A stretch of DNA of 64,000 nucleotides. Origin: Octopus vulgaris (taxonomy: Eukaryota). The stretch lies in assembly GCA_951406725.2 (NCBI GenBank), contig OX597836.1, forward strand, positions 744,001 to 808,000, written 5' to 3'. The notes beneath the pieces were generated by a model that saw nothing but the letters and a program-made list of their open reading frames with translations, was not told the DNA's origin and did no database searches. Below are positions 11,537 to 37,860 of the stretch, piece after piece (the stretch's first letter is position 1; every line of letters starts with the position of its first letter). The translations under genes and the position numbers were made by a program.

Positions 11537-11797
<261 letters not shown>

Positions 11798-12179
11798 GAA
11801 TAGCACAATGCAGACAATTAGCTGTTTACATACTCACAAATACATGTACACAGTTACAGATACACATATACATGTGAATGGGTGGTTGTGTATATTTGTA
11901 AGTAGATATATAAATACACACATCTGTTTATGTGTATGTGGCAGAAACACACAAACATAGAGACATATATATTATACATACACTAGATACATATGTTAAT
12001 CCCATTTCATTTCCTTGATTGCTACATGCTTTTGTCCTGCTGCACATGTCACCTGACTTCTCCTCTTTGTCACAATACCTCACACTTATCACACTTTCTT
12101 CCTCTCTCTCCCCTCTGCATTCACCTTTACATGACTTTACTGTAAACGTCAGTTTGAGAAGGTTTCTACGATCACAAGA

Positions 12180-12620
12180 ACCACCATCACAACAATTAAA
12201 CCCACCAGCACCAGCATTATACACTTGCCACCACCACAGTAGCAGAACTCACTGGGAACAGCATCAGTGCCACTGCCACCACCTCAACATTACAACCCCC
12301 ATAACAACTACTATTACTAGTACTACCATCACCCCCAACTATCAGTACTTTCACCACCATGACCAATTGTCATTACCACCACCACCACCACCACCACCAC
12401 CACCACCACATACACACTACTTATTCCCCTTATTCATCCCTTAACCTGGTTATTTCAAGCCCATCATGTAATACAACCACTCGTTTGATCCTTTACACTA
12501 GCAAAACCAGAACCACCTCCACCACCACCACCACCACCACCACCACCACCAACCACTGCCACCACCGCCACTGCCTTCATCCCCACCGCCACCACCTCTG
12601 CCACATTCTCTATCACATTT
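12180..12620. repeat. (CAC)n-rich low-complexity tract
   Basis: Pure (CCA)n runs near 12376 and 12520 within degenerate triplets. Confidence 0.9.
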
Positions 12621-12909
12621 TCTTCTACTTTTACAGAAGATTTGAATAAGAAACTCAACACAATAAAAAACAAAAAATCAAGTACACATAAACCATAAAT
12701 AAATAATAATAATAATGAAGGCAATAATAATTCTCTAAACGAGGTATAGACAGTAACTGCTCTATAACATAAGGGACGTTAGCCATCCGAATGTGGCTAG
12801 GGACAGGGCAGGGCGGTGGGGGTGTTACTGATGCATTTAGCCCCAGGCGATCATCAACGTCACCAGAAGGGCTGACGCCATCACGGAGTCCTCTAGCCTC
12901 CAGCAGACT

Positions 12910-13258
12910 TGCAGTCATAGGATCATGGTTTCGATTCCCAGACTGGGCGTTGTGAGTGTTTATTGATTGAAGACACCTAAAGCTCCACAAGCCTTTGGCA
13001 GGGGGTGGTGGCGAATGTGGCTGTACTGTTTCACCACAACTTTCTCTCACTCTTTCTCCCTGTTTCTGCTGTACCTGTATTTCAAAGGGCCAGCCTTGTC
13101 AAATTCTGTGTCACGCTGAATCTCCCTGAGAACTGCGTTAAGAGTACACGTGTCTGTGGAGTGCTCAACCATTTGCACGTTAATTTCACGAACAGGATGT
13201 TCCGTTGATCAGATCAACTGGAACCCTCGTCGTTGTAACCGACAGAGTGCCACGAATA
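12910..13258 (+). mobile_element. tRNA-derived SINE of a third family, well preserved
   Basis: B-box-like GGTTTCGATTCC; 3' end gatcaactggaaccctcgtcgttgtaaccgacagagtgcc; retains CpGs. Confidence 0.65.
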
Positions 13259-13829
13259 ATGAAAAAAGATAGATTGTGTATCAGCTAAAACATTGTTATT
13301 CCACCCTGTATGCTCAATTGTCAATGTCATCATCATCATATGCGATACTGTTATCATAATTATCATTATAGCTAATAGTATTATCCTCATTCCAATTGTG
13401 GTCATTGTTGTTATTTTTGCATTTGTTATAGTCACTGAAAATCCTTCTCATTCCCATTATCATTATCAATGCTCATAGCCAAATGCACATGCATACACTT
13501 CACCCAACAACACAATATTTTGTTCAATTTTTTGAGATCTTTAAAGAGAAAAAGTTATTAACCACTTATGTGTCAAATAGTGTGATCAATTGTATTCTGT
13601 ATGGCAACCGAGTGTATACTTCTGTGTCTGTCTATCAGTATATTTTTATAGGCAGATGCACACATGTGACTGTCATACAGTTGATCTTAGCTAGAGAATA
13701 TCCAATGAGTGGTGGACACCAGTGTGATGAACTGGACTTCAGTAATCAGATCTAGACTGAAAAACTCTGGTCTATAATTAGAACTTACCAATGTGCAAGA
13801 TAATAAACCTCAGTATTAACAGTCTGAAC

Positions 13830-14020
13830 GGTAGTTGAGTGGTAGAATCATTAATTAGAATGTTGAACAAATATCTTTTGGTTTTTAGTTAGAATTTTTC
13901 ACCTTCCAAAGTTAAATGCAAATGAATTCAGTTTCACCTCGTATCCTTTTCGGGTAGAAATAAGTATCAGTCAAATACAGGTCTTGATATGAATGACAGC
14001 ATCCAATCCCCTTATGCTTA
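13830..14020 (+). mobile_element. Meta-like SINE, decayed
   Basis: cacctcgtatccttttcggggtagaaataagtatcagtc. Confidence 0.55.
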
Positions 14021-14435
14021 TATAAAAAAAATCACTATCATAGATCAACAGCTGTTGCTTACAGCAATGACTTCTCTATATAATGTGGTATCAATACCGA
14101 GTTAAGGAGACAGGGCTACCAGAGGGTAAGGTATCTTGGTATCAGTGACACGTACACATTATCAATTTCTCACTCTATCTATTTTAAAAAAATGATTTTA
14201 TGGTGTTGTTTTTTCTTCTATACTTGCAAACAGGAGATGGTTTTTTGAATGAATCAATTGCCAAATGATGATTCATCTTACTACTTAACCAACCAAATGT
14301 GAAGTAGGAGGTTGTAGAATCTGTTTTATAATCTTAGGTGAAATGAAGGCAACAGCTATGTATCTAAAGGCAGCAATAAGATTCAGCTTCCTACCAAAAG
14401 GACAAAAGTGTAATCCAGCATTTTAACCTGGAGCT

Positions 14436-14491
<56 letters not shown>

Positions 14492-15444
14492 TGTGCGTGT
14501 GCGTGCATGAGTGTATGCGTGCATACATGTATGTGTGAATAAATTTTCTTCAACCTGGATTTGAAACCAGCTTGATATCTTTCCCCATTTTTGCTGGCTG
14601 TTTTACCACCTTTACACAGTACAGAGCACCTACTTCTTGTGTATAGTAAAATGCAAATATCTCCCACTTGAGTTTTTAAGTATTAATACTTAGGTCCAGT
14701 TTTATGGTAGGAAGTGGATAAAAGATAAATTTCCTCTTGGACAGTCTACAAAAGATACCATTCGTTAGATGATGTAGTGCCAACTTCTGATAGACAGATG
14801 ATCTGCTCAGAAACACAAAGAAAGCTTGTACTGGAATCAAACTGCATATCAACAAATAGCTAGTCAAATATATACATTCAGCTATCCAATATCTGCATAG
14901 TGTATAGATTATTAATTAATGATATCTTTAAATGCTATGTTTTGTCATTTCTTTCGATCCCCCCTCACTCTCCAACATTATTTGCTCGGTTCCTTTGATC
15001 TTTTCTTCTCATGTTTATTTTATCTCTCTTTAGTTTATCTCTTCTTTTTCCCTCAGTTTATAGCCACTCTTTCACTTTAACTTTGTTCCATCCTCTCAGC
15101 TTAAATAATTATAAAATAACACACACACACACACACACACTGTATGGTCTTAGTTTAGACATGTTGAGTTTGAACATGATTAACTGAGATATATGATTTA
15201 CACTCCTTGCAATAACCTGATAGTTTTTTAGTCTGTTGAATCAATAAGGGTTATTGAATTGCAGAGTTCAAGTTTATATTCTGATATCTGCACTGCATTG
15301 CATATCATCGTGTTTCTAATATACAAGCTTAAACTTCACCAGCATAGGCCAACTAGCTTTAAATAACTAAACAGGTATCATGTACTGGCAACGTTAGCTA
15401 CAATAAGCAGTAAGGAAACAATATACATATATTACATATATTAC

Positions 15445-15686
15445 AGTGCACTCTGTAAAGTGGTAGGCATTAAGAATGGCATACAACTACAGAGACCATG
15501 TTAAAGCAGCCATGCTGGTGCCATGTAAAAGGCATCCAGTTCATTCTGTAAAGTGGTCAGTGTTAGGAAGGACATCCAGCTGCAGAAACCATGCCAAAAC
15601 AGACGACTGGAACTTGGGCATCTCTCCAGCTGGCCACCTTCTATCAAACCATCCAACCTATGCTAGCATAGAGAATGGACATTAAA
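15445..15686 (+). mobile_element. RTE 3' UTR fragment with internal duplication
   Basis: ctgtaaagtgg...agaaaccatg segment present twice. Confidence 0.75.
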
Positions 15687-15688
15687 AT

Positions 15689-15760
<72 letters not shown>

Positions 15761-15935
15761 GGTGTGGCTATGTGGTAAGAAGCTTGCTTCCCAACCACAT
15801 GGTTTTGGGTTCAGTCCCACTGAGTGGCACCTTGGGCAAGTGTCTTCTGCTATAGCCCCAAGCTGACCAAAGCATTGTGAGTGGATTTAGTAGACGGAAA
15901 CTGAAAGAAGCATGTCATATGTGTGTGTGTATATG

Positions 15936-15975
<40 letters not shown>

Positions 15976-16002
15976 CATACAAGCATACATGCATGCATGC
16001 AT

Positions 16003-16038
<36 letters not shown>

Positions 16039-16151
16039 GTGTATGTTTATGTCTGTATTTGGCTCCCTCTGCAGCTTGACAACTGGTGTTGGTGTGTTTA
16101 TGTACCCATAACTTAGTGGTTTGGCAAAAGGGGCCAATAGAATAAGTACCA
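15761..16151 (+). mobile_element. CORE-type tRNA SINE with internal microsatellite
   Basis: A-box-like tggctatgtggtaag, B-box-like gggttcagtccc, CORE-like ggcaccttgggcaagtgtctt. Confidence 0.85.
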
Positions 16152-16194
16152 TATATATGTGTGTGTGTATATATATATATATGTATGTATATAT

Positions 16195-16375
16195 TATCAT
16201 CATCATAATCATCATTTAACGTCTATTGTCCATGCTGGCATGAGTTGGGCAGTTTGACCAGAGCTTGCAAGCTGGGAAGCTGCACTAGACTCCACTCCGA
16301 TTTCTATAGCTGGTTGCCATTCCTAACACCAACCACTTTTCAGAATATGCTGGGTGCTTTTATGTAGCATTGCAT
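16195..16375 (-). mobile_element. RTE 3' UTR fragment
   Basis: (CAT)n tttaacgtc tail. Confidence 0.75.
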
Positions 16376-16424
16376 GGGTGCTATACATACATATGTATGT
16401 ATACATATATATTTTATTGGAGGA

Positions 16425-17530
16425 GGCCGGTTTATGGGATAATATCTGAGGTCAAATTGTTCCATATTTATGAGAGACCTATACTCTACATCTACTCCTA
16501 CTCCATGAAGAGCTCTCAGATATTTTAGCAAAACCTTAAGTAACTGTGGGCCTTTGAATTCCAAACTGCTGCAATACATGGTCCTCACACTAGATGGGAC
16601 AGCCGGGATCTTTGGGACAGTACAGCAACGTCCAGTTCAGAGGCTGGTATAGCTCTCAATGCCAAAGTTTGGTGCCAACCCCTCCAGGATCTTCCATATA
16701 GATATCACTGCATACCTCTCCCGTCTTTGCTCCAGGGAGTAGAGTTGTAGCTCTATTGATGCAATACTCCTGGTGCAGCACCACTGAACTGCCTCAAGTT
16801 CTGCTTTCACTTTGACACTGTTGGGTGACCACAGTTGAGAGCAGTAGTCCAAACAGCTGAGTATGATATCCTCCATATAATTGGCATGGTTTCTTGGTCC
16901 CTTGTTCCGAAAGTCCTCAGAATCCATCCAGTCATTCACATACACATTGCCACTATCTAGGTGATGTGTACATGAAACGAGGCATGGTTACTCACATCAA
17001 TTCCCAGAGTCATGTACAGTACATGACTCTGGGCTTGCTATAGATTTTGATCCAAGAGGGCTTGGAATTTCCATGCATTTATTTGCATGTTGTTTTCTTC
17101 AGCCCATCTATATATGGCATCTCATTCTTTCTGTAGAAGATCAGCATCAGAAGTTTCCTTGACTGCTTGTACTACCTGCGTCATCAGCATAGCTAGTAAG
17201 TGTGGTTGTCTGTGCAAATGATGGCATATCTGAAAGAGCCACCATAAACAACAGAGGCCCCCAAGAAAGATCTTTGAGGCACTCCACTCTGTTACTGTCT
17301 GCTTGGACAGGGCTCCACTGGCTGGCACAGCCTGGCTTCTGTCTTTTAAGAAGTCATGTAACCACTCTCAGTTTTCTAACTATACCAAGTCTCTGTAGCC
17401 TGTAACATATCATCCCATGATTGACCTTATCAAAAGCTTTTGCAAAGTCAAGATATATCATATCTCCATATAAGCAAAAGCTGTGTAAGGCAGCTTCTTC
17501 TTGAAGAGAAACCATGCTGGGTCACAGGAA
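16425..17530 (-). mobile_element. CR1-clade LINE RT relic
   Basis: YLDFAKAFDKVNHG, SYADD, LDYCSQLWSP...ELEAVQ...LYSLEQRRERYAVISIWKILEGL, broken by frameshifts and stops. Confidence 0.9.
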
Positions 17531-18685
17531 CAAGTAAGAGGGATTCAACAAGTTAAGTAGTAAACCTCAAGATTACAGCTTCTTGCTGTATTTACCCTCA
17601 AAGTCAAGTGAAAGAAACTTCTCAACCTTAAGACACCATGCTGCCCAAAACTTTACAATGCCCCTCACTTGACACTAAAATTATATTTTTGAAACTTTAA
17701 TTGATTTTTTTGAATCAAAGGCCAGCATTATAATTTATTTTTAATTTTGATGTTTGACTGATAGGAAAGACATGATGTCTAATGCAATTGAAATTATGAA
17801 ATTTGATGCCAACCATCACACAGGAAATTATATAATGTGAATGAAAGAGTTAAGTTCTATGGAGTAGCTTATAAGTGCACAGTTAATTACTCTCACGCTA
17901 AGACTATCAAAGACAAAAGCACAGCCTGTCAGTAATTCTGTTGATATTATGTCAAGCCCCGGTTAGCTGATCAGCTCATGTTATAACACCTAACAAGCTA
18001 ACAAGAATAAGACTTGTCATGTGGTGTAACGGGTCTGCTATAAGCACAGATCTCATAACTGTTCTGTCATCAAGCAATGGCAGAACTTACACATTCTTCT
18101 GAATAAGTGCTGTTTATAGTTGATGCAATCAATAAATGGTGATGACACAGTATTGTTACACAAATGCACGCCCTTTGTTGAAAAATGCTCTGAGTATTAT
18201 ATCTTTAGAATCCTATTGAAGACACATAAAATAGAAATTAAGTGTTGGGAAGAAAACTAGATAAGTAAAACTAGGCAGTATCTAAGCAAATCTCCATGTT
18301 CATCTATAGGTGCATGCCACTGCTGTCTTCATCATTATCAACATATAACGTCTGCCTCTAATGATTGCTTAAATTAAACTGTTTAACAGGATCCAACATG
18401 TCAGAGGACTACATCATGCTCCAATGCCTGCTTCAGTACCATTTCCATAGATAACTTCTCTTCCTAATGCAATCAGCCAATAGAATATACCGAATGTGTT
18501 CTTTGTGGCACAAGAACTAACGAGGGCATCTTGCAAATTGTGAGAGGAAGGGATAAGAAAGACCTCTACAGGAACTGGTGTTGGAAATTAATAAGATAGG
18601 GGAGGACTGAGAGATAAGATGGGTTTTATATATAAATACATCATCTGCCTGCCTGTCTGTCTATCTATCTCTGCATATACATTTA

Positions 18686-18760
<75 letters not shown>

Positions 18761-18761
18761 G

Positions 18762-18950
18762 ATGTGATAAAGCCGTCAACACCAAACAGTTCCTCAGAGA
18801 CCTAACCCTGAATAGCTACCCCATCTTTAGCTAAACAATGGTGCCTGAAGAATATCAAGGTCAATAAACCCCAGAAGAACCATCATACTCCCAAGTCCGG
18901 TATGTGTTTTCTAAAGCTTCCACACTTTGACGGCAGAACTGTAGGAAGAA
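18762..18950 (+). mobile_element. Penelope-like RT thumb fragment
   Basis: FLRDLTLNSYP...MCFLKLPHF resembles the PLE L..NGYP...LPY region; flanked by (TA)n. Confidence 0.5.
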
Positions 18951-19077
18951 AGTTAGCTTCAAGCTATCCATAGTAAATATAAAAAATCAACTTTCAGGGA
19001 CAATAGTGGGTTATTGTGATGGAAGATTGTGGAGTTTTTTCGTATTGAAGGATGACAAGCTGAAAATATATGTATAT

Positions 19078-19232
19078 ATCATCATCATCATCATTTAGTG
19101 TCTGCTGTCGATGCTGGCATGGGTTGGACGGCTTGACCAGGGCTGGCAAGCTGGAAGGCTGCACCAGACTCCAGTCTGATTTGACATGGTTTCTACAACT
19201 GGATGCCCTTCCTGACGCCAACCACTCCGTGA
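19078..19232 (-). mobile_element. RTE 3' tail
   Basis: Near-consensus tail with retained CpGs. Confidence 0.85.
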
Positions 19233-19239
19233 GTGGGCA

Positions 19240-19988
19240 GAGTTCCTCATTCTGCTATCTAGTAGGCTCTAAGGAAGTCAAGATTAGACACGAGTGGCTT
19301 GTTAGTGCTGTACAATCTATGTATAAGGTTGCTGTCAGTTGCATGAGATTCAGCCTTGAGTACAATCATGAATTTAGTGTACAAGTAAGAGTTCACCAGA
19401 ATTTGGTTTTCAGTCTCGTCTTATTCATCATAGACTTCCAGGTCATTACAAGGTAATTTAAAACTGGGAACCCAAAGGAGCTGCTATATGCAGAGGACCT
19501 CACTCTTGTAGGACAACCTGTATCAGAATTGGAAAAGAAATTCCATGTATGGAAGTAAAACTGGAACCGAAGGGCCTTAAAGTTGATCTAGTGAAGACCA
19601 AAGTTGTTGTTAGCAACAAAGCAGTTAACACTCTCCTTCTGTCAGGTAAAAGATCCTGCTCAATATGTGGGGAAGATGTTGGAAGGAATTCCATTCATTG
19701 CACTCAGTGCAAGCTATGAACAAATAACAGGTGCAGTGGAATCACAGGTAAGTTAACGGAGAAAGTGACAGACTCGCAAGAACAATAAACATCAAAGACA
19801 CATAGGAATTAGATGTTCCCAAATGCCCAGGAGATTCCCTTGAGGTATTTGTCAACTGTATCCTTGCTACCATGTTGTTGCTTCCCTATATACCTGTGTT
19901 TCACCATTCACTGCATTCCCCTTTCCTTCTACTCCATTTCCATTCACTTCCTTGTACATCTAGGGTATGCCCTAACATATCATCACCA

Positions 19989-20024
<36 letters not shown>

Positions 20025-20370
20025 CCTCCAACTGGGGTGACCATGTATCTCCTCTACAGCAAGACACTTGTTTCTCTCTCTCTGCAATAGTTTAACTCAT
20101 CCCCTGGCACAAATGCTCCCTCAATACCAATAACCCCTCTCAGTTGGGGAATCTTTGTCTTGCAACTTCCCTGGTTATCTTATCATGCTGGTGCTACATA
20201 AAAAGTACCCAGTACACCCTGTAAAATGGTTGGTGTTAGGATGGGCATCTAAATGTAGAAACCATGTCAAAGCTGATAGTAGGGCTTGGTGCAGTCTTCT
20301 GGTTTGCCAGCTCCTGCCAAAATGTCTAACCCACAGCAGCATGGAAGACAGATGTTAAACGATAATAATG
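19240..20370 (+). mobile_element. RTE LINE relic (RT fragment plus 3' UTR)
   Basis: ELLYAEDL, GLKVDLVKTK, CSICGEDVGRNSIHCTQC; tail ends near 20370. Confidence 0.85.
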
Positions 20371-20378
20371 ATATGCGT

Positions 20379-20424
<46 letters not shown>

Positions 20425-23400
20425 CTCTATAGTTACAAAACTTGCTTTCCAACTATGTTATCTCTGGGTCAGTCTCACTGCATGGCACCTTGTGCAAGTG
20501 ACTTGTATTATAGCTTCAAAAAAATTCCATCTGACCCATGCAAACAGAAAAGTAGACGTTAAAACAATGATAATTAAAAATATATATGTAAACATTTACA
20601 TACACACACACAAACACACACATATATACATACAAACATACGTTTCATACATATATATGTGTGTGGTGATGATCATATATGAGTGTGTGTATGTGTGTTT
20701 TTGTACAGGAATAAAGTAGGGAAGGCTGATTTCAAGATCTGAGCCAAGGAGGAGATGACAAGGAACTGAGATGATTGGCGATTCAATGTGCTTCAGAAAC
20801 CCTGTCCATCATTGTAAAAAAATGATATTCTGAAAGCATTCTGTTTATGCTTGTAACTCAATCTGCCCCATGAACATTTGCCACATTTCATTCACCCAAC
20901 ACTCTATATTTGGCACTAATTAGCAACTGTAATCCCTTGAAGACAGAATTAACACATATTACTCTGCTCCACTTTCTTTGTGCAATCAGTTACCTCCAGC
21001 CCCACTGGAACCACTTCCATCCCTTATTTTCATTATCCTTTCTTCTCCAATGCTATTTCCATAGACGACTTCTTTTCTGTTCCCTTAGTAACCACTTTCC
21101 TTTGCAATACTCCATTTTCATATCTCACATATCTACTATCATTCTCAACATCCTTTCATATCTGCCATCACACCTATGTACCTCTACCATAACCACCTTT
21201 ATGTACCTCTACATTTATGACCTTGGGTTATAGATGTGAGTCAATTTGGTAGACAAATACTGAAAGAAGCCCATTGCATGTGTGTTGTGTGAGTGTGTAC
21301 ACATTCTTTTATTCTTTTATTTGTTTCAGTCACTTGACTGTGGTCATGCTGGAGCACTGCCTTTATATAGGATATAAAAAAAGAAATGCATGAATTTCAC
21401 ATACAATTCATAATTTGCCCAGTTGACCTCTACATCTGTTTCAATGGCATACAACATCATTGTTTATTTGATTACACAATTATAATAGACATTTAATTGA
21501 CTCAAATGTGATGTATTAACCCATCTCATCAAGATATATTGATAACAGAAAACTGTTACTAATATAAAAGAGTGTTCACTGATTTAAACAATGGTCTTGC
21601 TGGGGGCATTGAGTGTTACTGTTTGCTTGTAGTCCACTGCAAAATATGGTCCAACAGCTTGGAGTATATCTGAATGGAAGTAGGTGTTGCAAGACTTGCT
21701 TAGCAAAGAGTAACCATTCTAAAATATTGGACACAATCAAAATTCTGTCTTGAATTCAAAACACAAAATATTTGAATGCTGCCCTTGTGAATGGAAATTT
21801 GAGAGGATGATATGGTTCTCCCTATTTTCAGATGCAGGAATGATAGACATGTACATGCACAACCACACACACACACACACAGCTGTTATGTTGGTTGTGT
21901 CAACCATCATGGTTGACACAAAGGTGGGGAAAATCTTTCTTGGAAAATGTTAGAACTTTTCCCTTCATTTCACTCCAGTTCTTTCCCCCAAGATTGAGCC
22001 AACCAGAACTATGCATACCTCCAGCATCAAAGAGGCAATGTGTTTCCAGCCAGAATGTCTGCAGATTCATCGATATTTCCAAGTGCAATAGTTGGCATGA
22101 AATTGTTGGTAACAGACCAGTTATATGCCATAACCAGTAATATACAGCATGATACTACACACACACACATGTATGTATACGAGTGTGTGATTTTGAATAT
22201 GTATGCTTATCTTTTTATATGTGTGTCTTTAGTTATATTTAAATTGTTGAAATTTAAATATTTCCTCATATTTCTTGTTTCTATAATCTTTGCTGAAGAA
22301 TTTTCCTGTGTTTGAGTATGTGTACATACATACAAATACAGACATGCATACACACACACACATACGTGTGTGAGTGTGTGTGTATTACAACAACAACAAT
22401 GAACAACTCAAAATCTTTCAATCCTATAAAGAACAAGTTGGTCATAGGTGCAAGTCCAGAAATTCTTTGCTGTCAGCAAAACAAATCCAGACTAACATGA
22501 TGCATAACAATAGTGGAAACAGTGCCATGACTCAGGTACCTCAAAATTAATGTGTCCACTTCTGTTTTTCTTTAGTTCCTGCAAATTATCCAACTTTCAG
22601 AAATATATAATCCAGCTGGATATATCTTGAAAACATGAATATGCATACATAACTGTATTTCCCTTTAGCATGCAGATGGATTATCCCTACTAAATAGTTG
22701 TGAGGCTGCTTTGGCTTTGCATTTTTCACCCCCTGTCTAAGGCAGTATTGAAGATGTAGTGACAGATGAAAGAAAACATATCCACAAAACGCCATAAAGC
22801 ACAGGCTGGGGGTACATATTAGCTTTGTATATTGCATGGATAGCACTGGCAGGTTGGTCAGGCATCTCTTGGGGATCATATTATTTTCCTACAAAAGTTA
22901 TGTATTTCAACTGATAAATACATATCCAACAACAATAAAAGGAATGTGAGGATCAGGAGCAAAATCACACACACACACACACACGTGTTGGCACTTATCA
23001 AAGTGGCAAGTGCCAACAAACATTAACTCTTGGTCCTTGAGTCACTCTGTAACTTCTGTCAATATTAATGAAAAATGTATATATCTACTCATGGTCTGAG
23101 TTCTATTTTCCTGTTTGCATCCCCCAGCTGATATGTGTGTTTGTGTGCATGTGTGTGTGTCTATGTGTGTGTGTGTGTGAATGTGTGTGTGTGTTTGTGT
23201 ATCTTTTTTCATAAGGACTTTTGACAATTTATATTGTTAATAGCAGCAGCCTACCCTGAGTTTTCACTCATAACACTTGCCTGATGACAAGTCCAACACA
23301 AATTATCAGGATTTATAATCTTTTATCATCTCATCTATATAACATACATGACTAAAAGTAAAAAAAAAACATAAAATGGCTTTATGGCAGGGGACACAAG

Positions 23401-23792
23401 GACTTTTGACATTCTATATCCAATAATTTATCTAGTCATCATATGCACATTGTAACTATCATGTAACCAGTTATCTGCATACTATTATTATTGCTCTGCA
23501 GTGAACATTGTTCAAAGCCATCTTTAGATGCTCATAGACCTGATTCTTTATCAAAGAAGTGGGCATCCACACCATTAAAATATGATGATACTATACCATT
23601 TATGAGCCACCTAGATCTTTATGCTGCAACACCCATAACATACCTTAAGAAAGCACTGCCTGTGTCACTATATCTCTATAAAACAATATTAATATATTTA
23701 CAGGGAAAAAACCCCAAAAGACAATTGAACTATCCAATCAAACTTTAAAAATCAAACAAAATATTCACCAAAACAAAGCCTTTAAAAGTCAG

Positions 23793-23865
23793 TCCTACCT
23801 GTCTGTTGTTGAAATATTGCAAAATTCATTCTGAAACTTACCTGCAAGGAAAATAGAAAATATAT
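23793..23865 (-). promoter_or_regulatory. Candidate recursive splice site with 43-nt RS-exon
   Basis: Minus strand attttctattttccttgcAG|GTAAGTtt (junction 23842/23841), then CAG|GTAGGA at 23799/23798. Confidence 0.65.
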
Positions 23866-24151
23866 GGTAATTAATAAATTCACTTTTATTCATGATTAGC
23901 ATTTTGTTACATTTAACAATAAAGACATATTTTTTTCTCATGTCTTTTTTATCAGCAAATATGATTCACTGAGAAATATACCTGTTCCGAATTAGGAAGT
24001 GGTATTCAACTTTTGCATAGACTCACAATAAAAAAAAAGGAAAGAAAAAACATAAAAAAATATACTGTTGACTCATAGTTTTATTTATGTATAATTATTT
24101 GTATACTGATAGATATGAATAATTAAAACTGCATGTTTATGTGCATGTGTG

Positions 24152-24292
24152 TAGGAAGGGCATCCAGCTGTAGCAACTATGCCAAATCAAACTGGAGTTT
24201 GGTGCTGCCTTCCAGTTTGCCAGCCATGGTCAAACCAAGCAAACCATGCCAGCATGAACAATGGACATTCAATGATGATGAGGATGATGATG
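24152..24292 (+). mobile_element. RTE 3' tail
   Basis: taggaagggcatccagctgtag...gatgatg. Confidence 0.8.
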
Positions 24293-24309
24293 ATATATAT
24301 ATACACATA

Positions 24310-24522
24310 CAGTGGTACTGAAAAGTTCCTGGCTTTGAGTAAAAGAAAATACAGGAGGATCAGTTAATTATAACTTTATTCAACATCTTCCCGTCACAGA
24401 TTCACACACTTATGGCAGCAGTCCTTCAATTTTTCTAAGACCCACAAAAGAACTCAGAAGGTTGGGCCTCCAACAAGGCTTTCGTGATACCCTTAAAGCT
24501 AGGAACTTTTCAGCACTCCTCG
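24310..24522 (-). mobile_element. Internally deleted mariner (MITE)
   Basis: TA on both sides; TIRs cagtggtactgaaaagttcctggcttt / aaagctaggaacttttcagcactcctcg; internal KCVNL*REDVE* mariner C-terminus. Confidence 0.85.
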
Positions 24523-24555
24523 TATACATATATACATACATATATATATATATAT

Positions 24556-24666
<111 letters not shown>

Positions 24667-24735
24667 GGAGTAAACATATAAATGTGAAACAAGGTGGAAA
24701 AAAGAGTACTCAAATACCAGTGGTAGAGTAATTTG

Positions 24736-24773
24736 CTGTCCGACGAACGGCAACGTGAAACTCAGAATAACAG
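24736..24773 (+). ncRNA. Minimal type-I hammerhead motif (variant CCGACGA core) in a Penelope-like terminal repeat (24664-24796)
   Basis: CUGU-CCGACGA-ACG(GCAA)CGU-GAAA-CUCAGA-AUA-ACAG; helix I CUGU/ACAG. Confidence 0.6.
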
Positions 24774-24794
24774 GTTTTGTTGAATTTTCTGCTG

Positions 24795-24833
<39 letters not shown>

Positions 24834-25373
24834 AATATCTATACACACACACATGTACTATATATATATATTTTTTTATAGGGGATCCATAAAGGATTGA
24901 GGTATGTCAAAGTGAAGCATGCCACAAATTGGCTAGACAGAATGATGCAAAACAAACAATTAATTCATTATCATAGCACAGAATGCATTGATAAAGGTTA
25001 GTTCACTGCTGGAAGGTAATCCATAACTTTAGTAGTATCCAAAAGTATCCAATGTTAACTGGAACCCTAACTACGGTGTAAAAACAGAAAAAAAAAATGA
25101 CTAATGTGTTATGTGTTATGGTTACAATTGTTTTGTGAAGACTCTTTTTCTTATAACATAAGCATAGCACAGTCAGGTATTCAGTATGTATGACATTCAA
25201 CTCTCAACTCATCAGGGAAACCAAGCAAACAAATGAACAATGATGCGATCATTTTGCACCCTGGATGTATGATAAGGATTACACTTCTCACCAATGTTAT
25301 ACAGGGGTAAAAATGTGTAGAAACAATTATAACGATTTAAGATAAATAATGTTCATTCTATTTTCTATCATTA

Positions 25374-25480
<107 letters not shown>

Positions 25481-26549
25481 CTATATATATATATATTTAT
25501 ATTTATATATATATATATATCTATATCAGCAACAACACACGTTTGATAAGCAAATGGTTACTATTAACTCCAGATCACGACAGACAGAGTGGAAGCTCTT
25601 GAAGCTGAGAGTTTTAACTTACGGAGACAATATTTACATATCACCTAAGGAAGCACAACTAGATCTCATAATGCAGGGAAACAGTTGCATAATCAAATAG
25701 CAGCACGCCTGGAGAACTACAAACAATATATGCCCAACCATACTCTTGTTGACATATAATGTTTATGCAAGCACAAATAGACATAAGAATGCATATATAA
25801 CGCACTGCATGACATTCTGTTCATTATCTGTTAACACAAGAATATAAATTTGGCACTTTTTAAGAGCCTAACTCTATTTAGCTGTGCTAAACAGTACCAG
25901 TTTTGCAAGGGAATATTGACACATATAACAACTCACAACCGCATCTATAAGTACAGTATTTTATCAATCACTTAATACATAGAATAAAAAAAATTATGAA
26001 TATCAATATGTAGCATTAAAATTTATGTGCTAAATTTCTTTTTTTTTTTTTGTTTGTGTGTGCATCTTTTCATCTATAAATTTGATGGCATTATGGTAAG
26101 GCTAAAGCAATTGTCTCATGTGGGAAAGAATTCCTTTTACTTCACTAAGAATGGAAAGAAAAACACAAACTTTTAAACAGACTTAGAAACATGTGTGAAA
26201 GTGTGTGTGTATAGTAGGTAATAAAGACACCAATCTGTGTGTGTGTGTGTGCATGTCAGATATAAATACAGACACAGAAACATATGAACATATGCACACA
26301 CACACACACTTGAACTCCTGAGTAATTTGTGATAGACTCAGGCACTTCAAAACAATGTTTATTTTTCCTTTGAACTAACAGCTATCTTCCCTCTTAGGAT
26401 GGAGTAATGTATGTGTGACGAGGGGTGTTACTGAAAGTAAAATACTGGTTGTGAGTTATAAGAATTGCCTTTCAGAAGGATGTAAGCTACACAACCTTTC
26501 CTTTCACCCTTTCCTAACAAATGAAAAATAAATGCAGTTTTATTAGAAT

Positions 26550-27015
26550 AATTGTTTCTAATTTAGGCACAAAGCCATCAATATTTGGGAATTGAGGTTA
26601 GTTGATGCCATCTAGCCTAGGACTGGACTGGTACTTTATTTTATCATCTCTGAAAGGTTGAAAGGCAAGATTAACTTTGGACTTAGGATGTGAAGAGCTG
26701 GAACAAATAAATCATTGTTTTGTAATAAATCATTGTTTTCCTCTAACTACCAATCAATCATCCTGATAATGATGATGATGGTTTCTGATTTAAGCACAAA
26801 GCCACTAATTATGAACGGAAGGGATTCAGTCAATACTATTAGCTAAAAGCTGATGGTACTTTATTCTATCAAACCTGAAAGGATGAAAGACAAAGTTGTC
26901 TTTGGATGAGATTTGATCTCAGAATGTAAAGATCGAAAGTAAATATTGCAAGGCAAATTTTTCTAACACTGTAAGGAATTTGCTTTCTCCACCTTCGTGA
27001 TAATAATAATAATAA
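26550..27015 (-). mobile_element. Two tandem Meta-like SINE copies
   Basis: ggtactttattttatc...gaaaggttgaaaggcaag and ggtactttattctatc...gaaaggatgaaagacaaagttg. Confidence 0.7.
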
Positions 27016-27329
27016 TCATAGCATTAATCTCTTCTTTATAAGCCACAAGGGCTTAAAGAGATGATAAATACATAACTTTCATTAGGGAAACAAAGAAGGC
27101 ATAATGTGGAGTCTTAAAAATCATGTTTAAAAATGGAAAGGGAGCAGGTAAGAGATATATTCATTATATGAATGCATCAAGAATTTTAAAGGTACCCCTC
27201 CCCTCAACCCACGTGTGCAAACACACACACACACACACACTCACACAGTTGCATGGAAATGAAACAAAGCACAATCAAAACAAGATAGAATTTAAAGAAA
27301 TAAAACATGAGAGATTTTCTGGTTAAGTT

Positions 27330-28740
27330 GAGTTGGATACTCCATGTCTCCATTCACTTTACCATTTCTCAAATTGTGCTCAAATGTATCAGAATGCACC
27401 AGTGAGCATTTTTTAAACGTTTGATGCTTAGGGGTTATTCTTTTTAAAGTTTGATATAATGCAATCATCTAACTTTTTCATGCTGTTTTATATTCTGAAC
27501 CAAAATGTCTTTGTCTTTATAAATTCAGAAATTCCACCACAAATGCACAATTTTATCAATTAACTGCTTTTTTGATTTTTGAAGAACTGATAGGTCATCT
27601 CCATTTTCATTTTCTTTATTTTCCTGATCAGGTATTTTATTCTTGTTTTCATTGTTTGATCTAGTTCTTTTACCCTGATATTTTTTCCTCATTTTTTCTC
27701 TTTCATATTGTCATCTGTAATTATTTCTTTCATATTGCATGTTGTAGGTGTAGCACTGCAGGCTGCTACCATTAGGTGATGAAGTATTTTCTCATCTATT
27801 TCTGATATTTTCTTTGCAATCTCCAGTGTTTTAGCTGGTGGTGCTTTGAAAACTGAGGTTTATTTTTCTTGCTGTTCATTGTCATTATTTTTGCTTCATT
27901 TTTTTCATTTCTTCAAGGCATTCAGCACTAACTTATGTTTTGCTCCAACAAATACAACTAGGATTTCTATTTAGTATCATCAATCTCATACTCTTTACTT
28001 TGGTACCTTTTACCAGGCACAGTTCATTTATGTCTTTGTAGTCCTTGGGAATCAGTAGAACTTGCTAGTCCATTATGATGTTCCCTGACCATAAATCACT
28101 TTTGTTCAGCCTTCCATACTGCAACACTAAATTCTCTGTTAGTTGTCTACATATGGTGACTATTGTGTTTCTTTCACTTGTGTTCTGGAGGATGAATGTG
28201 TGTCTGACAACTTCACATTGTCTTTTGGCTGCAGTTTCATCTTTAAAGGTACTGCAAAAAGTGCCATACCTTTAGTCTTTTTCAATTATGTTAATCTCTC
28301 TGAATATATCCTGGAGGGTTTGAACTATGGTGAGGAGTAATTTCATCCATTTCCATTATTCCATGAGCAGAGATGAATAATTTGTTTTTTGTTTGTTTCA
28401 CCATCTCCTGTGGCAAAATAATACTAATGGGTTTTACAAAATTCTTCCATCAATATTTCTTATCTTGTAATTGTGACAAGGTCCAAAATTCTGTCTTTTC
28501 ACTTGGTGTTGAGGGAAAATTTATTTTTATCCTGTTGCTGTTTGAACAGATTTCAGTATTTGGAATTTTTTAAGGGTCATTTGTATTATTGTTACTGTCC
28601 AGCCATCCAAATTACTTATTTGAATATTCAAGATATTTTCTTCTATTAAATGCTTCCCCTACTGTTAATTTTCTTCTTTTTCTTGTACAATTTAGTTGTG
28701 GGTTTTGATTTCATGTTGTTTATAAGCCATTGTAATGTTT
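27330..28740 (-). pseudogene. Decayed A-rich coding relic, possibly LINE ORF1 (gag/zinc-knuckle-like)
   Basis: Strong strand asymmetry; pieces GTFKDETAAKRQC and LNRNPSCIC...AECLEE; many stops. Confidence 0.4.
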
Positions 28741-28994
28741 TGTTGAGTGGTAGCTATTTTAGATTGAAAATGTCAATAAAGTTTTAAAAGTCTATGAAAT
28801 AAATCTCTTTTTTGTGATGTCAAACCTCCTGCCATACATACACATATTGCAGGCAGCCCATCCTTAAGCAATTATAGTTCTTTTTTAATAAGTACTCCAA
28901 AGAAAATTTCAGTATCTAATTTTTAAATAAAACATGTTTACAAGAGAGACTCTAAAAGATGTCTTCAGACTATGAGAATCCACAACAGCAACAA

Positions 28995-29130
28995 TAATGG
29001 TTTCTGATTTAGGTACAAGGCCAGTAGTTTTGTTGGGGAGGGGGGTCAATCAATTCCATTGACTTGTACCTTATTTTATTGTTAATGAAAGGATAAAAGC
29101 AAAACTGACCTAGGCAGAATTTGAACAAAA
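28995..29130 (-). mobile_element. Meta-like SINE fragment
   Basis: ggtttctgatttaggtacaaggccag...gaaaggataaaagcaaaactgacct. Confidence 0.6.
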
Positions 29131-29669
29131 ATGGTGGTGGTGGAGGTGGTAATGATGATGATGATGAAGAAGAAGAGGGTAATTTATTTCACTCAATATG
29201 TCTGATGAAGGGGACATTAGAAGGGTAGGATATAATTTGTGGTGGCTTTGTAAAAAACAGTGAAGGAAAAATGGGGAGAAGGAGAAATTAGATGTAATTA
29301 TATATTTTAGAAAATTACTATTTTTACATCTCTTTCCTTGTTCGAAAATATAAGGACACAGATCGTGTCGTATAGCCAGCTGGAGACAATGTCTCCTGGG
29401 GTTAAATTACAGCAACATTAGTTCTAAACCAGGACTGCCATGTTATGTTGGCAAACCATCTTTACTACATTTTACATTTTTTACAAAAATATGAGATTAG
29501 ATGAATAATACAGTCTTCTTGATACAGGAGATGATATCTTGATACAGGAGAGCCTCCAACTAGGGCCAATCAAAGTCCCATGGACCTAGGATTACCTTGA
29601 CCACCAGTGCATGAACCTTAACCTCTCACTCTAATTTATAGGTGCATGCTTAATGAAAGACAAAGCTGA

Positions 29670-29743
<74 letters not shown>

Positions 29744-29941
29744 GTTGATTTCTGGTAGTTATTTGATTCATTACAAAACAAACCTGGTGTTTAGTTTCAG
29801 CTTTGATTCTAGTATTTTCATTGATTATCAAATGCTTACCAATACAAGTTGATACAGATGCTATGTGTAACACAGTGATATGAAGCCACTGCTAAAATTG
29901 TTCCCATTATGTCCTCTGCATTGTCAAGAATAATCAATACA

Positions 29942-29992
<51 letters not shown>

Positions 29993-30024
29993 TTTATTGA
30001 AAAGCAGCAGAAACATCACAGAAA

Positions 30025-30059
30025 CTGTTACTCAGAGTTTCACGTTCCCGTTCATCGGA
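30025..30059 (-). ncRNA. Minimal hammerhead motif (CCGAUGA core), helix I 5' arm lost
   Basis: Minus strand CCGAUGA-ACG(GGAA)CGU-GAAA-CUCUGA-GUA-ACAG; homologous to 24736. Confidence 0.6.
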
Positions 30060-30484
30060 TATGTATATATATGTATGAATTTTTGTAGTAGCTACAGAGT
30101 TTATCAAGGTGTGTTATTGCTGAAGGACTGTGGAAACAATTATAGTGATAGAAAATAAATGTCCAACCGTACTCCTTGTTGACTCCAATTTTTTTCACTT
30201 ATCGATTCACACACAACAATTTTGAGCCCCATAAATGGGGATTATAGCTGTTGTTTTTGTTGTGTTCACATAAATAATAGGCTAGCATTTTGATATGTAT
30301 AGAAATTTCTGTATCCTTCTAGGTGAAATGGTTATGTATGACATTTTAACACTCTTTGATGCAAGTTATTTGGTGCTGACACCTAGTGGAATAGAAAAGT
30401 TATCTCTAGTGTAAACTGCCATTACTCTATTCATGATTTTTAATGAACATCCCCTCTAACCAGCCAAAACTGACAGTACATAAC

Positions 30485-30688
30485 TACAAGTTGCTTGGTG
30501 ACCCTGGTGCTGACGCCACTAAAAAAGCACTCAGTACACTCTGAAAAGTGGTTGATGTTAGGAAGGGCATCCAGCTGTAGAAATCATGCTGTAATGGACA
30601 ATAGAGCTTGGCAAAGCTCTCTGGCTTACCAGCTCTTGTCAAACTGTCCATCCCATACCAGCATGGAAACTGGACATTAAATGATGGA

Positions 30689-30720
<32 letters not shown>
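30485..30720 (+). mobile_element. RTE 3' UTR fragment
   Basis: ttaggaagggcatccagctgtagaaa...(GAT)n. Confidence 0.85.
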
Positions 30721-31278
30721 CATGAGGTGTGTCTGTAAATATCCAAAGCCTTGATATGTTGATGTACAGCTCCAGTTCAGCCCTGAATAAGCAGACATTT
30801 AATCAAAAGCATTTCAGTCATGACTACTCTTATTCAGATGGGCTGCGGTATCTAATGTGTTCTTTCTTTATTTAAGACAGTAATGTATAATTTGAGGAAG
30901 ATTTGATTGCTGTTTCTAGAAAATTGAGTACCCTGTTGAGGCCCTCTGTGAAACTTTGTTAGTATCTGTTTGGAGACATCCTTTGAATGGAAATTCAGAA
31001 TCCTTGCTACTAACCACAGCCAGGGGTTACTTCTATCATTTGAGGAACTACTCTTCTATTTGCCTCACTATAACTTTCAGTATACTACCTGCATTATCAT
31101 CTGTGGCCACTTGAAATCACATTCAGAACCCTGAGGGGGTTCTGAAAAATAAACAGAAAAATAATGAACTATATAATAGGAACTGACTGACTTGATCATT
31201 ATTATCAGAAATATAGCACAAGTGAATTCAAAGACGTTGATATTGGAAACATGATAATGTTAGCTGTGTGTGTGTGTG

Positions 31279-31342
<64 letters not shown>

Positions 31343-31706
31343 GAGAGCTGTTATTGCTGGTGATAGTGGTATTATTGTCTTGTGATAGCCTTAAATGTTT
31401 CCCACTCATTTTGGTGCCATGTCAGAAAATGAGCTACCACCACCACCACTACTTCTATGAGCAAATATAATGCATATATATATATATATATTGCAGCACC
31501 AGTGCTACCACCTCTGACACATCCTTCATATGTATACTTTTATTGTCTTATCTCAGAAGAAGTCAAGTGAAAAGAAATGTTGAAGTAGAATTGTCATTAT
31601 TGTTTAGCATGATTTTGTTTTCTTATTTTCTTCCAAGAATCTAATCAACAAAAAATACAGACACACAGAAATGTATGTCTTTCTCTGTGTGTGAGTGTGT
31701 GTGCAT

Positions 31707-31747
<41 letters not shown>

Positions 31748-31951
31748 CGTGTGTGTGTAAATGCATGTATAAAGAAAAAGACACATATACATAGACAAAA
31801 AAATTGGTGAATGTCTAAAAGAAGAAAGAACATATATAAGCAGATACACACACACACAGACACGCACAAAATGTGTGTATGGGGACATGTACAACTTGGT
31901 TGTGTCCTTGTGGAGTTAAGATGATCTCTCACAAACTAAGAATGAGTAACT

Positions 31952-31986
<35 letters not shown>

Positions 31987-32247
31987 TGAGAGGGGTAATG
32001 GAAGACTGGGGGGATAAAGAATAAGAAGAGAAAGACAGTAATGACTAGGGAAGGAGGAGAGAAACACAGTGGGTGGGAAATAGCAACAGAAGCAGATAGA
32101 GATAACATGTCCATTCCTTATTTCTTATCTACTTTCTACCATTAAACTATGACTTGACTGATTGGTTTACTAAATCACTACATAAATATTTCTAAGTTTA
32201 CACAACATGCACACACATCTTTATATGTATGTGTTTTTGCGATATAC

Positions 32248-32287
<40 letters not shown>

Positions 32288-32331
32288 GAATGTCTATGTA
32301 CACACACACACACACACACACATATTGTCTA

Positions 32332-33480
32332 CTAGCAGAATACCTGGCAGTGCTCAGACTGTTAAGTAACTATAAATGGCTCAGAATTATTCTTAGTAGA
32401 AGTATGTTTGGTTTAGAAGAATCTTTAATGCATTCCTTTTGTAAAGTTATATTTCCTGTAAGAGATTAATTCATTTTTCACTACTTTTTACAGCAATTCA
32501 ATTTCTAGTGCACTATGCCACAGATAGGTGCTCAATATTTATATTATATCTTATAATTTGTGTTCATTATATACACCTTATTCAAACATAATAAATAAGA
32601 TCCTATCTTTTTTAATATGGGATTAATTTAATGCAAATAAAGTTTTTATTTAATTTGAAGCTCTAAATGAAGGCACTATATCATCTTTTTACTCTTGAAA
32701 TGATTTAATTCTAAAAATGATTTTTAAAATGTGTAGAAACTGGAGTGTAGAGTGGCAAACCAGCCACAGAAATAAAATCATTCTAAAAATATGTGAAACC
32801 AGCATCCCCAGAGGAGATTTGTAATTCCAAATATTAGAACTTCAAGACATGCAGTAATAAAGAAATAATTGCAATGAGCTCCAGTTTATATGATATTGGA
32901 TCAGTGGCCATCATAATCTTGGCAATTTTGAACATTGTCACATAAGCACCTCACACTATTCAGTGTTTTTTTTTTCCTGCTGGGTTATAAATATATTATG
33001 GAAGCTTTTCTAACACTTGAGCAGGTTATAAACGACTTGTTATCAGCAAAACAGTACTCTTCAGGATGCAGTGTAGCAATTGTCAAGTGTTTGCCTTTGG
33101 AATTCATTAAACAGCAAAGCTTAGGTAAAGTCTCTTATGTGGAAAGGGCACATCAATTAGCATGAGTCAAATTTAGGTGTAGCTGCATCGTTTCCTTGGG
33201 TACACCCAGAGAGATTAGTTGTGTCAATGACTATTAGTGCTGTGACCTTGGTATACCAGAAGCTGATATAAATTATGCTGTAGCATTACTACTGGGGATC
33301 ATCTTTTTAATTGACGTTTGTTCAGCAGGTGACCTGAAAGATCCAATGAATTTCAAAATTCTGCAGAACTGTTTATTATGTTTTTCTGATCCACAATAGT
33401 GTCTTAACTGATTTGTAGTTGTGATTATTTTTTAAAAGTACCAACAATTAGCAACTACAAGATACTGTAGGTAAGGAAAT
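32332..33480 (-). mobile_element. Helitron relic (Pif1 helicase C-terminus and 3' end)
   Basis: 3' ...gcactgccaggtattctgCTAG|T; EF*NSLDLSG...SPVVML and KGKHLTIATLHPEEYCF...ITCSSV (~KSQGQTL..GLHL..CFSHGQLYVGCSRV). Confidence 0.8.
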
Positions 33481-35879
33481 TATTTTTCTACACAGGCGTT
33501 TGTGTGTCTTCAGTGTATCCTCCCACAAAGCCTGAGAGACCTACATGGGGTGGACTCCTGTTGTAAGTTCAGATGAGCCTACCTCGCAGCAAGAAATGCA
33601 GATGAGGGCATCAACAGCAAACTCCCTCATTTATGAAATGTCACATATCAGAGGTGGTTTCAACTAGTGAAAGCATAGCAAAGCTAATGGTGGTGCCCCA
33701 GCATGGCCACAGCACTCAAGCTGAAACCAGTAAAGAAAAAAAAAGTGAAAAAGATGTGTGTGTGTGTGTGTATAGATAGATATATACACCTCCTGAGCCA
33801 GACCTGAGGACTGCAAGTCCCCAAACCCGTTTTTGTGCCATTTACAGGATTATTTAGATACATTTTGAAATACTTTCTGGTTGTATTTTAAGAGGTTGCT
33901 GCCAAACTCTCAGATAACAAGTGAGAAAATGTTGGCTGTTATACAAGAAATGCTTGTGTGGATAGAATATGTTTTAAGTGGACGAGGCTTGCACTGCACC
34001 ACCTCCACCGATTTAGTCAAAGGATACGATAACAGTGTGACAAACTGCATGACAATATTGACAAAATAGGAAGCTCATGATTTTATCTTGGAGATACCTT
34101 CTCCTAGATTGGTTGTTATCACAAAACTAGTGTGGAAAGATGACCTGTACACACACACAAACACAAATATATAAAATGTATAAAAATATAAAAAAATATA
34201 AAAAAAAAGAAAAATATAGAAACAATATATTCATATGCACACAACTGTTGGATAGCCATTGACTATTATTAAGTTCTGCTGCTCTTTGATGGGTTTTATT
34301 TTTCCTTCATGGCACTTCTCTGGCTGAGAAAGTGTGGGAATTAAGGGAGAGTAATACTCAATTTGAGATTGCATGAGGTATAGTTGGGAGGGCTCGACCA
34401 TATTCTAATAATAGGTATGGCTGTAGATTATGCTGCACCAAACTGTATGAAATATTAAAACATCAGATCAATCTACTGAATAGCAAAATTGAATTGAGGC
34501 TTAATTGCTTCCACCAGATTAGATGCGAATTTGCATACTTTAAACTGGTTGTAATTCTGCAAACCCCTATTTACATTTCCTTTTAGGTAATTTAGGCAGT
34601 ATGTGATTGTCCACAATCCTGCTCTCAAGATTCTATATGGGCAATTCTATAATGGATTTACTTTATCAACATCAGCTACTAATCACAGCCTACATAAGTA
34701 TATCATGTAATGTAATGATAACATAGTGCGTGACCTCACTTTTTGACCTGTATCCCCCAAATTCTCTTACTGCTTTACTAAACATCATTATTTTACTATA
34801 TTTAAATATAAGTCTATTACTCTCTCAGTAGATGGCACTGTAGTCCAACATGCATATGTATACACTCATTTTGTATGCGTATATGGTGATATATATACAT
34901 ATATGAGTGAGAGTACATGTATGTATATATGTATGTGTATGTATGTATGCATATATGTACATGTATGTGTGTATGTATGCATATATGTATATATATAAAT
35001 ATGTGTGTGTGTGTATGTATATATGTTTGTATGTTTTCATATAACAAGCACTAGTGTCTCTATATACTGGTATGCAGGTGTGTGTGTGTGTATATATATA
35101 TATGTTTATGTATACTTGTGTGTGTGTGTGTGTGTGTAATCTTCTTTGGCACTCCATTTTCTGTTATCTGGTGGTGCCTCCAATTTATTTCATATCATGT
35201 TTATTGTACCTTGCCACAATTAAATTTACACTCCCTCATTCTCTTGCTTATCTTGATGCCATCATTTGGTGGCATCAAGATCATCTTGTCCCGCTGACTG
35301 TTAGCCCTTGAAATCCTTTGATATCCTGTAAGTGGATTAAAGGTTTTTCCTTTTTTTTTCTCTTATCCTTTTCTCTTTCCTTTTTCTCCCTTTCTATTTC
35401 CCTTCATTTCCTTCCTCTCTTTCAATCCCTAAAATGAGTTCTTTAATTTACCACACCATGTGTATTTACTTTGAAATAGCATTCACTATTCACTCTCTCA
35501 GTTGTAACCAAGATGGGATGGTCAGCTTGCATTATGTTTAATTTATGTGAAGAATCCTAAGTGTTTAAATCACCAGAAGAAAACGTTTTTTTTTTTACAT
35601 GATGTAATATTTTTGTTCATCAATAAAGAACATGTCTGAAACAGCTGTAGGGAACCTCAACCCATCTGTGTTATTGTTCAGACTTCACCACACTTGGAAC
35701 CTCCTCTGTGTTGGATCTTGATTCTATATCTGACTGTAGAATATGTGCTATAAGTGGACTCTTATTTGACTTTGCATATACATGTATTCAGTCAGTACTT
35801 GTGAATGTGTGTATAACTGGAAGGATGAACCCATATTTACTTTAAGAGGTACGTGTATGTCCATACAAATTGTTATTGC

Positions 35880-36208
35880 TTAGGTAAATGACCCTGCTCA
35901 ATATGTAAAGAAGGTGGTGGCAGGAAGTTCATAATGTGTACACAATGCAAGCTATAGACACACAAGAGGTGCAATAGAATCACAGGAAGGCTAATGGAGA
36001 AAGCAGTGTACGTATATGGAAGATCTGCAATAGCAACGAACTCTAAGGGTACATGGGAAATAGATTTTCCCAAATGCCCTGGAGATGGTAGATAGTTTGT
36101 TGCTCAGGTGACCTAATTAGCAGTGGAGAGAATATTCAGAAAGTATAGGTGCTAAAATAAGAATAAGATGGATGAAGCTCAGTGAGCTATTACTTCTGTT
36201 GATAACAG

Positions 36209-36255
<47 letters not shown>

Positions 36256-36620
36256 GAAAGGTAGATTGCAAAGGCTAGAGAGGAAGGAAGGTAGTATGCT
36301 TTATTGAATGTACACATGTGACAAAGTGGTAAAGTATTGAAAGAAAAGAGGCACCAAAGGAGTTAGATGGCGTGTGCAAGACAGAAGACTGCACTGGTTT
36401 GGATATGTGTATTGAAGACAGCTTAAAGTGAATGTCCCTTGTATAAAATCACTTCTCAACACTCTCAAATACTCCTGTCACTTAGTTGACTGGGCTTTCC
36501 CCTTATACCTCTTCATGTTCTTTCCTGACTTGGCAACTCCACTAGTGCTGGAGACTTAAAAAAAGCCCTTAGTGCACATGGTAAAGTGGTTCATGTTAAG
36601 AAGGCTATCCAGCTGTAGAA
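35880..36620 (+). mobile_element. RTE RT C-terminal relic and tail
   Basis: CSICKEGGGRKFIMCTQCKL*THKRC; aggctatccagctgtagaa. Confidence 0.75.
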
Positions 36621-37685: not shown

Positions 37686-37727
<42 letters not shown>

Positions 37728-37860
37728 GGATTCAGTTGAATCAGGTACTTAAATTGAAGCACCAAACCAGTTTGGTATAGTCCGTGCAGCTAGAAATTAG
37801 GTGAACAAAATGCAAATAAGTAACAAGGATGCCTGGATATCCTTGTTACTTATTTGCATG

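Follow-up and report, generated by a model that had tools for sequence, protein, structure and literature searches.

How is an intron of 230 kb removed from the transcript of an octopus gene? The question is raised by a stretch of 64,000 nt of the Octopus vulgaris genome (contig OX597836.1, denoted C23 below, positions 744001-808000; hereafter the window), which lies wholly inside the first intron of a couch potato (cpo) gene. An earlier note on this DNA had singled out a fused splice site, in which an acceptor is followed directly by the donor motif GTAAGT, and had interpreted it as a ratchet point, that is, a site of recursive splicing, with a cryptic recursive-splicing exon (RS-exon) of 43 nt behind it. 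The fused site is indeed there, on the minus strand, the note having left the strand unstated. Our analysis indicates that this site, the fourth ratchet point (RP4) in a chain of five, very probably allows the 230-kb intron 1 to be removed in steps. Seen directly are the sequence layout, the host gene with its intron, the enrichment of such sites, and, in a single RNA contig, exon 1 joined to RP1, the first of the sister sites. The interpretation as a ratchet point with a cryptic RS-exon thus gained from the host gene, the strand, the spacing, four sister sites and the exon 1-RP1 junction, but not from any junction at RP4 itself.

The host gene and its first intron

The window was examined together with 200 kb on each side. 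By similarity, the host gene is a member of the cpo/MEC-8/RBPMS family with an RBPMS-type first RRM: in a search of PDB structures exon 2 matched MEC-8 (E 1e-10) and RBPMS (E 9e-10) and exon 5 matched RBPMS (E 8e-8), and a protein search showed 100% identity between exon 5 and annotated couch potato proteins from Octopus sinensis, O. bimaculoides and Argonauta. On the minus strand, the RRM exons start at C23:663220, and the last base of the first coding exon is C23:971252, at a phase 0 boundary that reads EEE/GTAAGT. The 308 kb that separate exon 1 from the RRM are not a single unbroken intron: the RNA contigs contain two microexons from this interval, both on the minus strand, in frame, alternative and expressed: microexon A of 33 nt (C23:740826-740794) and microexon B of 39 nt (C23:694396-694358), the latter also present in proteins of O. 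bimaculoides and Argonauta. Since the contigs place microexon A at C23:740826, intron 1 is 230,425 nt long and contains the whole window. Exon 1 is joined to A in all four runs, with onward joins to exon 2 in run X4 and to B in run X12, and exon 1 is joined to B in run X2; B is thus joined alternatively to exon 1 or to A.

A chain of five fused sites

Scanning 464 kb for YAG/GTAAG with at least 14 pyrimidines among the 20 preceding bases gave five matches on the minus strand and one on the plus strand. The five sites of the gene read YAG/GTAAGTT and all lie on the transcribed strand, at C23:896085 (RP1), 856437 (RP2), 807793 (RP3), 767841 (RP4, window position 23841) and 717002 (RP5); RP1 to RP4 fall within intron 1 and RP5 between microexons A and B. 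In the 308 kb from exon 1 to the RRM exon, the sense strand has 360 acceptor-like sites, of which 5 are followed by GTAAGT where 0.075 would be expected (Poisson P about 2e-8), and the antisense strand has 294, of which none is, so the fused sites cannot be put down to chance. Their successive gaps are 39.6, 48.6, 40.0 and 50.8 kb, a spacing more regular than uniform placement would give (P 0.03 when just the four of intron 1 are taken, P 0.002 with RP5 added). TT at -6/-5 and T at +7 are common to the five, and 38-49 nt downstream each is followed by a second donor AG/GTA, for which the per-site chance is 0.018 in a 35-55 window that was picked after the fact.

An intermediate junction in RNA

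The RNA evidence consists of assembled contigs, from which rare forms drop out. In run X2, a 437-nt contig with a depth of 7.6 joins exon 1 to RP1, 75 kb away. Its first 36 letters comprise 30 of exon 1 and the six shared letters GTAAGT, and the next 30 displayed letters match the sequence behind RP1 at 30 of 30 positions. This contig is the junction expected from the first recursive step. As 401 further letters follow unbroken at low depth, it presumably continues into the intron beyond the RS-exon donor.

It could also be that the five sites are acceptors only, whether cryptic, stochastic or belonging to alternative last exons, and that the intron as a rule is spliced out whole, given that the sole junction seen, the one at RP1, proves acceptor use and not re-use of the donor. 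We regard this as very unlikely, because it leaves unexplained both the perfect GTAAGT behind five out of five acceptors and the even spacing of the chain.

Architecture of RP4 and proposed mechanism

The features of the site are collected in Table 1. The AG-free stretch upstream of the acceptor, which the earlier note had put at about 38 nt, measures 39 nt, and CAG/GTAGGA stands at +43, as had been described. The 49-nt exon mentioned there for comparison is real as well; it belongs to RP3, 39,952 nt upstream of RP4 in the same intron, on the same strand, and the only other strong fused site on the minus strand of the window. The two branch-like motifs fared differently: TTAAT offers a candidate branch A at -30, whereas CTAAT is present but is the weaker candidate, because another AG (23884-23883) intervenes and places it outside the AG-free zone. 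In flies, the branch points of ratchet sites are found between -21 and -36, most often at -30 (10.1101/006163).

Table 1. Features of RP4, its neighbouring sister site and the enclosing intron (window positions unless C23 is given)
Feature	Position	Strand	Basis
RP4 acceptor AG	23843-23842	minus	sequence
RP4 ratchet donor GTAAGT, abutting the acceptor; fourth of five	23836..23841	minus	sequence
Second (RS-exon) donor CAG/GTAGGA	23793..23798	minus	sequence
Cryptic RS-exon, 43 nt, frame-shifting if included	23799..23841	minus	sequence
AG-free zone, 39 nt, with pyrimidine tract, TT at -6/-5 and acceptor CAG	23842..23882	minus	sequence
TTAAT with candidate branch A at 23871 (-30)	23870..23874	minus	inferred from sequence
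CTAAT, branch-like, about -58, weaker candidate	23895..23899	minus	sequence
Sister RP3: AG 63795-63794, GTAAGT from 63793, 49-nt cryptic exon	63745..63795	minus	sequence
Intron 1, 230,425 nt, enclosing the whole window (1..64000)	C23:971251-740827	minus	RNA contigs and flanking exons

In the mechanism that we propose, the RP4 acceptor would be recognised jointly with the donor 43 nt downstream, by exon definition. Exon 1, having passed through the steps at RP1 to RP3, would then be spliced to 23841, which would remove 40 kb. As the last three bases of exon 1 are GAG, the junction at 23841 would regenerate the consensus donor GAG/GTAAGT. This regenerated donor would next connect exon 1 with microexon A, 27 kb further on, or, where microexon A is skipped, to RP5, 51 kb further on, and the 43 nt would normally be discarded and leave no trace in the mRNA. 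Use of RP4, the order of the steps and skipping through competition between donors are expected by analogy with the junction at the sister site and with work in flies (10.1101/006163, together with excerpts of PMC8605326 and PMC6110457).

Similar sites across the genome

The whole 2.8-Gb genome was searched with a strict pattern of ten pyrimidines, any one base (N) and CAG/GTAAGT, which occurs 117 times, against 21 occurrences of the reversed pattern and 38 of a control pattern whose acceptor is identical but whose donor is dead. When the first 80 of the 100 sites listed were compared with all 38 dead-donor controls, the median AG-free zone was 50 versus 24.5 (P 4e-5), and TT at -6/-5 was found at 64/80 versus 16/38 (P 1e-4). 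Behind the strict sites, AG/GTR is concentrated close by, with 34 cases at +30 to +119 (12.8 expected) and 2 at +120 to +190 (10.1 expected). Some donor at +30 to +119 is present at 51 of the 80 sites; for random places the proportion is 26%, and for the controls it is 16 of 38 (P 0.03). This window is post hoc, having been chosen once the histogram was seen.

Among the five local sites, RP5 alone fits the strict pattern. RP4, with an interrupted pyrimidine tract, misses it. Together with the lack of an RNA junction, this could mean that the sisters are real but RP4 itself arose by chance or is a remnant no longer in use. Such an interpretation is most improbable, however, given an expected chance count of 0.075 per 308 kb, and RP4 both fills what would otherwise be a gap of 67-91 kb in an even chain and has the +7 T, the TT and the second donor of its sisters.

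Strict sites also form same-strand groups 20-250 kb apart, for example C18:15812668, 15916312 and 15938490, or C13:4468667, 4550868 and 4805403, or C8:29499475 and 29592672. The arrangement suggests ratchet chains in other genes as well.

Fate of the 43-nt exon and points against stepwise removal

The earlier note had compared the 43-nt exon with poison RS-exons. Its expectation about the reading frame holds: intron 1 is in phase 0 within coding sequence, inclusion of the exon would shift the frame, and the resulting stop, 15-36 codons further along, would precede the later junctions by a wide margin. A regulated poison exon would go further, in that the second donor sometimes wins and the ensuing frameshift, through nonsense-mediated decay, lowers the amount of couch potato mRNA; the RNA-binding protein might in this way regulate its own level, a variant that could add to the ratchet role. 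Four of the five RS-exons in the gene break the frame or contain a stop, as such a function would have it, but the 42-nt exon of RP5 is in frame and free of stops, and at 51 sites genome-wide the first downstream donors split 17/17/17 over the three frames. By duplex energy the second donor pairs equally well as the regenerated one, yet no contig with the exon included was found at RP4 or at exon 1 (contigs, again, lose rare forms); the mature exon 1 junctions in all four runs lead to microexon A or B with the RS-exon absent, and it is likewise absent from 5/5 octopod proteins checked. In the accessible parts of two papers, inclusion leading to a premature stop is proposed for human RS-exons (PMC5126111), whereas the cryptic RS-exons of flies are described as always skipped (PMC8605326). 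Since nothing shows regulated inclusion, this part of the earlier proposal found no support, and we treat the poison exon as a minor and unlikely rival of the ratchet point.

Several observations weigh against stepwise removal of intron 1 through RP4. No contig crosses or starts at 23841 in any of the four runs X1-X4, among the matches listed for 23200-24270; coverage near RP4 is limited to low-depth contigs downstream (23200-23740) in X1, X2 and X4 and upstream (23850-24023) in X3, which argues neither way. Of the sequence words sought, large runs of the organisms D and E contain 0.72 and 0.52. The exon 1-RP1 junction is a single contig from one of four runs with 30 loose letters displayed, the 8-nt microhomology AGGTAAGT at this junction permits a template-switch artefact, and the junction demonstrates step one only. 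The runs carry no RNA label on record, yet their contigs show exon-exon joins across 230 kb, from which we take them to be spliced RNA. The first segment, from exon 1 to RP1, is 75 kb long and far exceeds the rest; a looser scan for an extra site within it gave weak candidates at C23:963350 and 897572, no better than antisense matches, and these were rejected. With a U1-like probe that was the site's own complement, the duplex energy was -10.7 for the second donor and -10.2 for the regenerated one, so the second donor is not weaker; pairing alone therefore does not explain skipping of the RS-exon, and some inclusion is possible. Finally, genome-wide second donors in the pre-set window of +30 to +59 were found at 13/80 sites versus 3/38 controls (P 0.26), and tests against the dead-donor controls in pre-set 30-nt windows were mostly not significant.

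Comparison with known recursive introns

The intronic ratchet points with cryptic RS-exons known from Drosophila include two in couch potato itself (Duff et al., 10.1101/006163); further fly sites are treated by Joseph et al. (PMC8605326) and Pai et al. (PMC6110457), as far as the excerpts of these two papers go. RP4 has three of the features that mark fly ratchet points, namely a fused YAG/GTRAG on the transcribed strand, TT at -6/-5 with a pyrimidine tract, and a short cryptic exon. The likeness extends to AG/GT in a long intron of a neural or developmental gene, a candidate branch at -30, even spacing, a number of sites that scales with intron length, and the host gene family. What differs, besides the host being a mollusc, is size: the octopus intron measures 230 kb, where 133 kb is the maximum in flies, and its segments measure 27-75 kb, where the fly mean is 18 kb. 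The recursive intron of fly cpo and octopus intron 1 belong to the same gene family and may or may not have equivalent positions; the fly cpo ratchet points were not located in the supplements of PMC6110457 by gene name, two FlyBase identifiers or coordinate prefixes.

Drosophila Ubx, whose long intron holds one ratchet point along with two microexons of 51 nt (10.1101/006163 and the available text of PMC8605326), resembles octopus cpo in combining ratchet points and in-frame alternative microexons in one long coding-region interval. The microexons of Ubx start with a working donor, however, whereas octopus microexon A starts with TTAAGT and the start of B is not donor-like. A lacking the GT start and B any donor-like start, neither can itself be re-spliced.

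Vertebrate RS-sites (Sibley et al. 2015, as reported in excerpts of PMC5126111, PMC8605326 and PMC10156609) share with the octopus sites introns of more than 150 kb, competition between the regenerated and the RS-exon donor, and premature stops that inclusion would bring. About nine fully suppressed sites are described there for mammals, in contrast to five in one octopus gene together with genome-wide enrichment, which is rather fly-like. A computational study of large introns in sea urchin, mosquito, bee and beetle likewise reported enrichment of ratchet-point sites (Shepard et al., PMC2773006, available in part), and in that study as in ours, fused sites in large introns of invertebrates are in excess on the sense strand; according to the same partial text, its 13 species include no mollusc or other lophotrochozoan, and RNA evidence does not form part of it. 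A literature search, with subscription journals largely outside its scope, turned up no account of recursive splicing from any mollusc.

Other features of the locus

A high-copy interspersed repeat occupies window positions 24152-24240, 310 nt upstream of the RP4 acceptor. Two open reading frames on the minus strand, at window 40902-41447 and 49573-50229, resemble decayed pieces of RTE-type LINEs. Within intron 1, the observed/expected ratio of CpG is about 0.8 above C23:852000 and about 0.2 below it, with the switch near RP2 and one CpG-rich patch at C23:832000-840000; the pattern probably reflects a methylation boundary or else a promoter inside the intron. Outside intron 1, a 33-nt stretch on the minus strand at C23:679666-679634, followed by GTAAAT, encodes 11/11 residues at the start of protein P0021 and is a candidate third microexon or alternative first exon.

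Microexons, age of the trait and significance

Most of the 107 homologues that bear the start of the RRM (of 120 listed) join EEE straight to VRTLF, and microexon A is present in only five of the 107, all of them octopod proteins. Microexon A begins AG/TTAAGT, one base away from a ratchet donor, a closeness shown by 0.6% of random hexamers, and 0.08% differ from the ratchet donor at +1 alone; it may thus be an exonised ratchet point. At the same place, and after different first exons, the tick proteins P0093 and P0095 have a cassette of 18 residues that starts with Val-Ser. GTRAGT would encode such a start, and the cassette, known here from protein alone, is compatible with an expressed RS-exon. 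Taking P0093, P0095 and P0119 together, tick inserts before the RRM comprise 18 residues with a Val-Ser start and 17 with a Val-Arg start, both of which could be expressed RS-exons.

Microexon A, the tick cassettes and fly cpo, taken together, suggest an ancient recursive intron that has spawned microexons. More specifically, recursive splicing of the EEE/VRTLF intron might be an old protostome trait that fly and octopus have both retained, scaled to the size of the intron, and in which ratchet points seed microexons, A through loss of the donor G and the tick cassette being examples. We put this forward tentatively, as a possibility that is itself somewhat doubtful.

In the literature covered here, RNA proof of recursive splicing comes from flies and vertebrates, and only motif counts from a few other invertebrates. 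The five-site chain and its one intermediate junction extend recursive splicing to molluscs, and suggest a simple way in which cephalopods could splice neural genes whose introns reach hundreds of kilobases. With the same host gene in fly and octopus, the age of recursive splicing can be put to the test, and microexon A does likewise for the route from a ratchet point to a new coding microexon.
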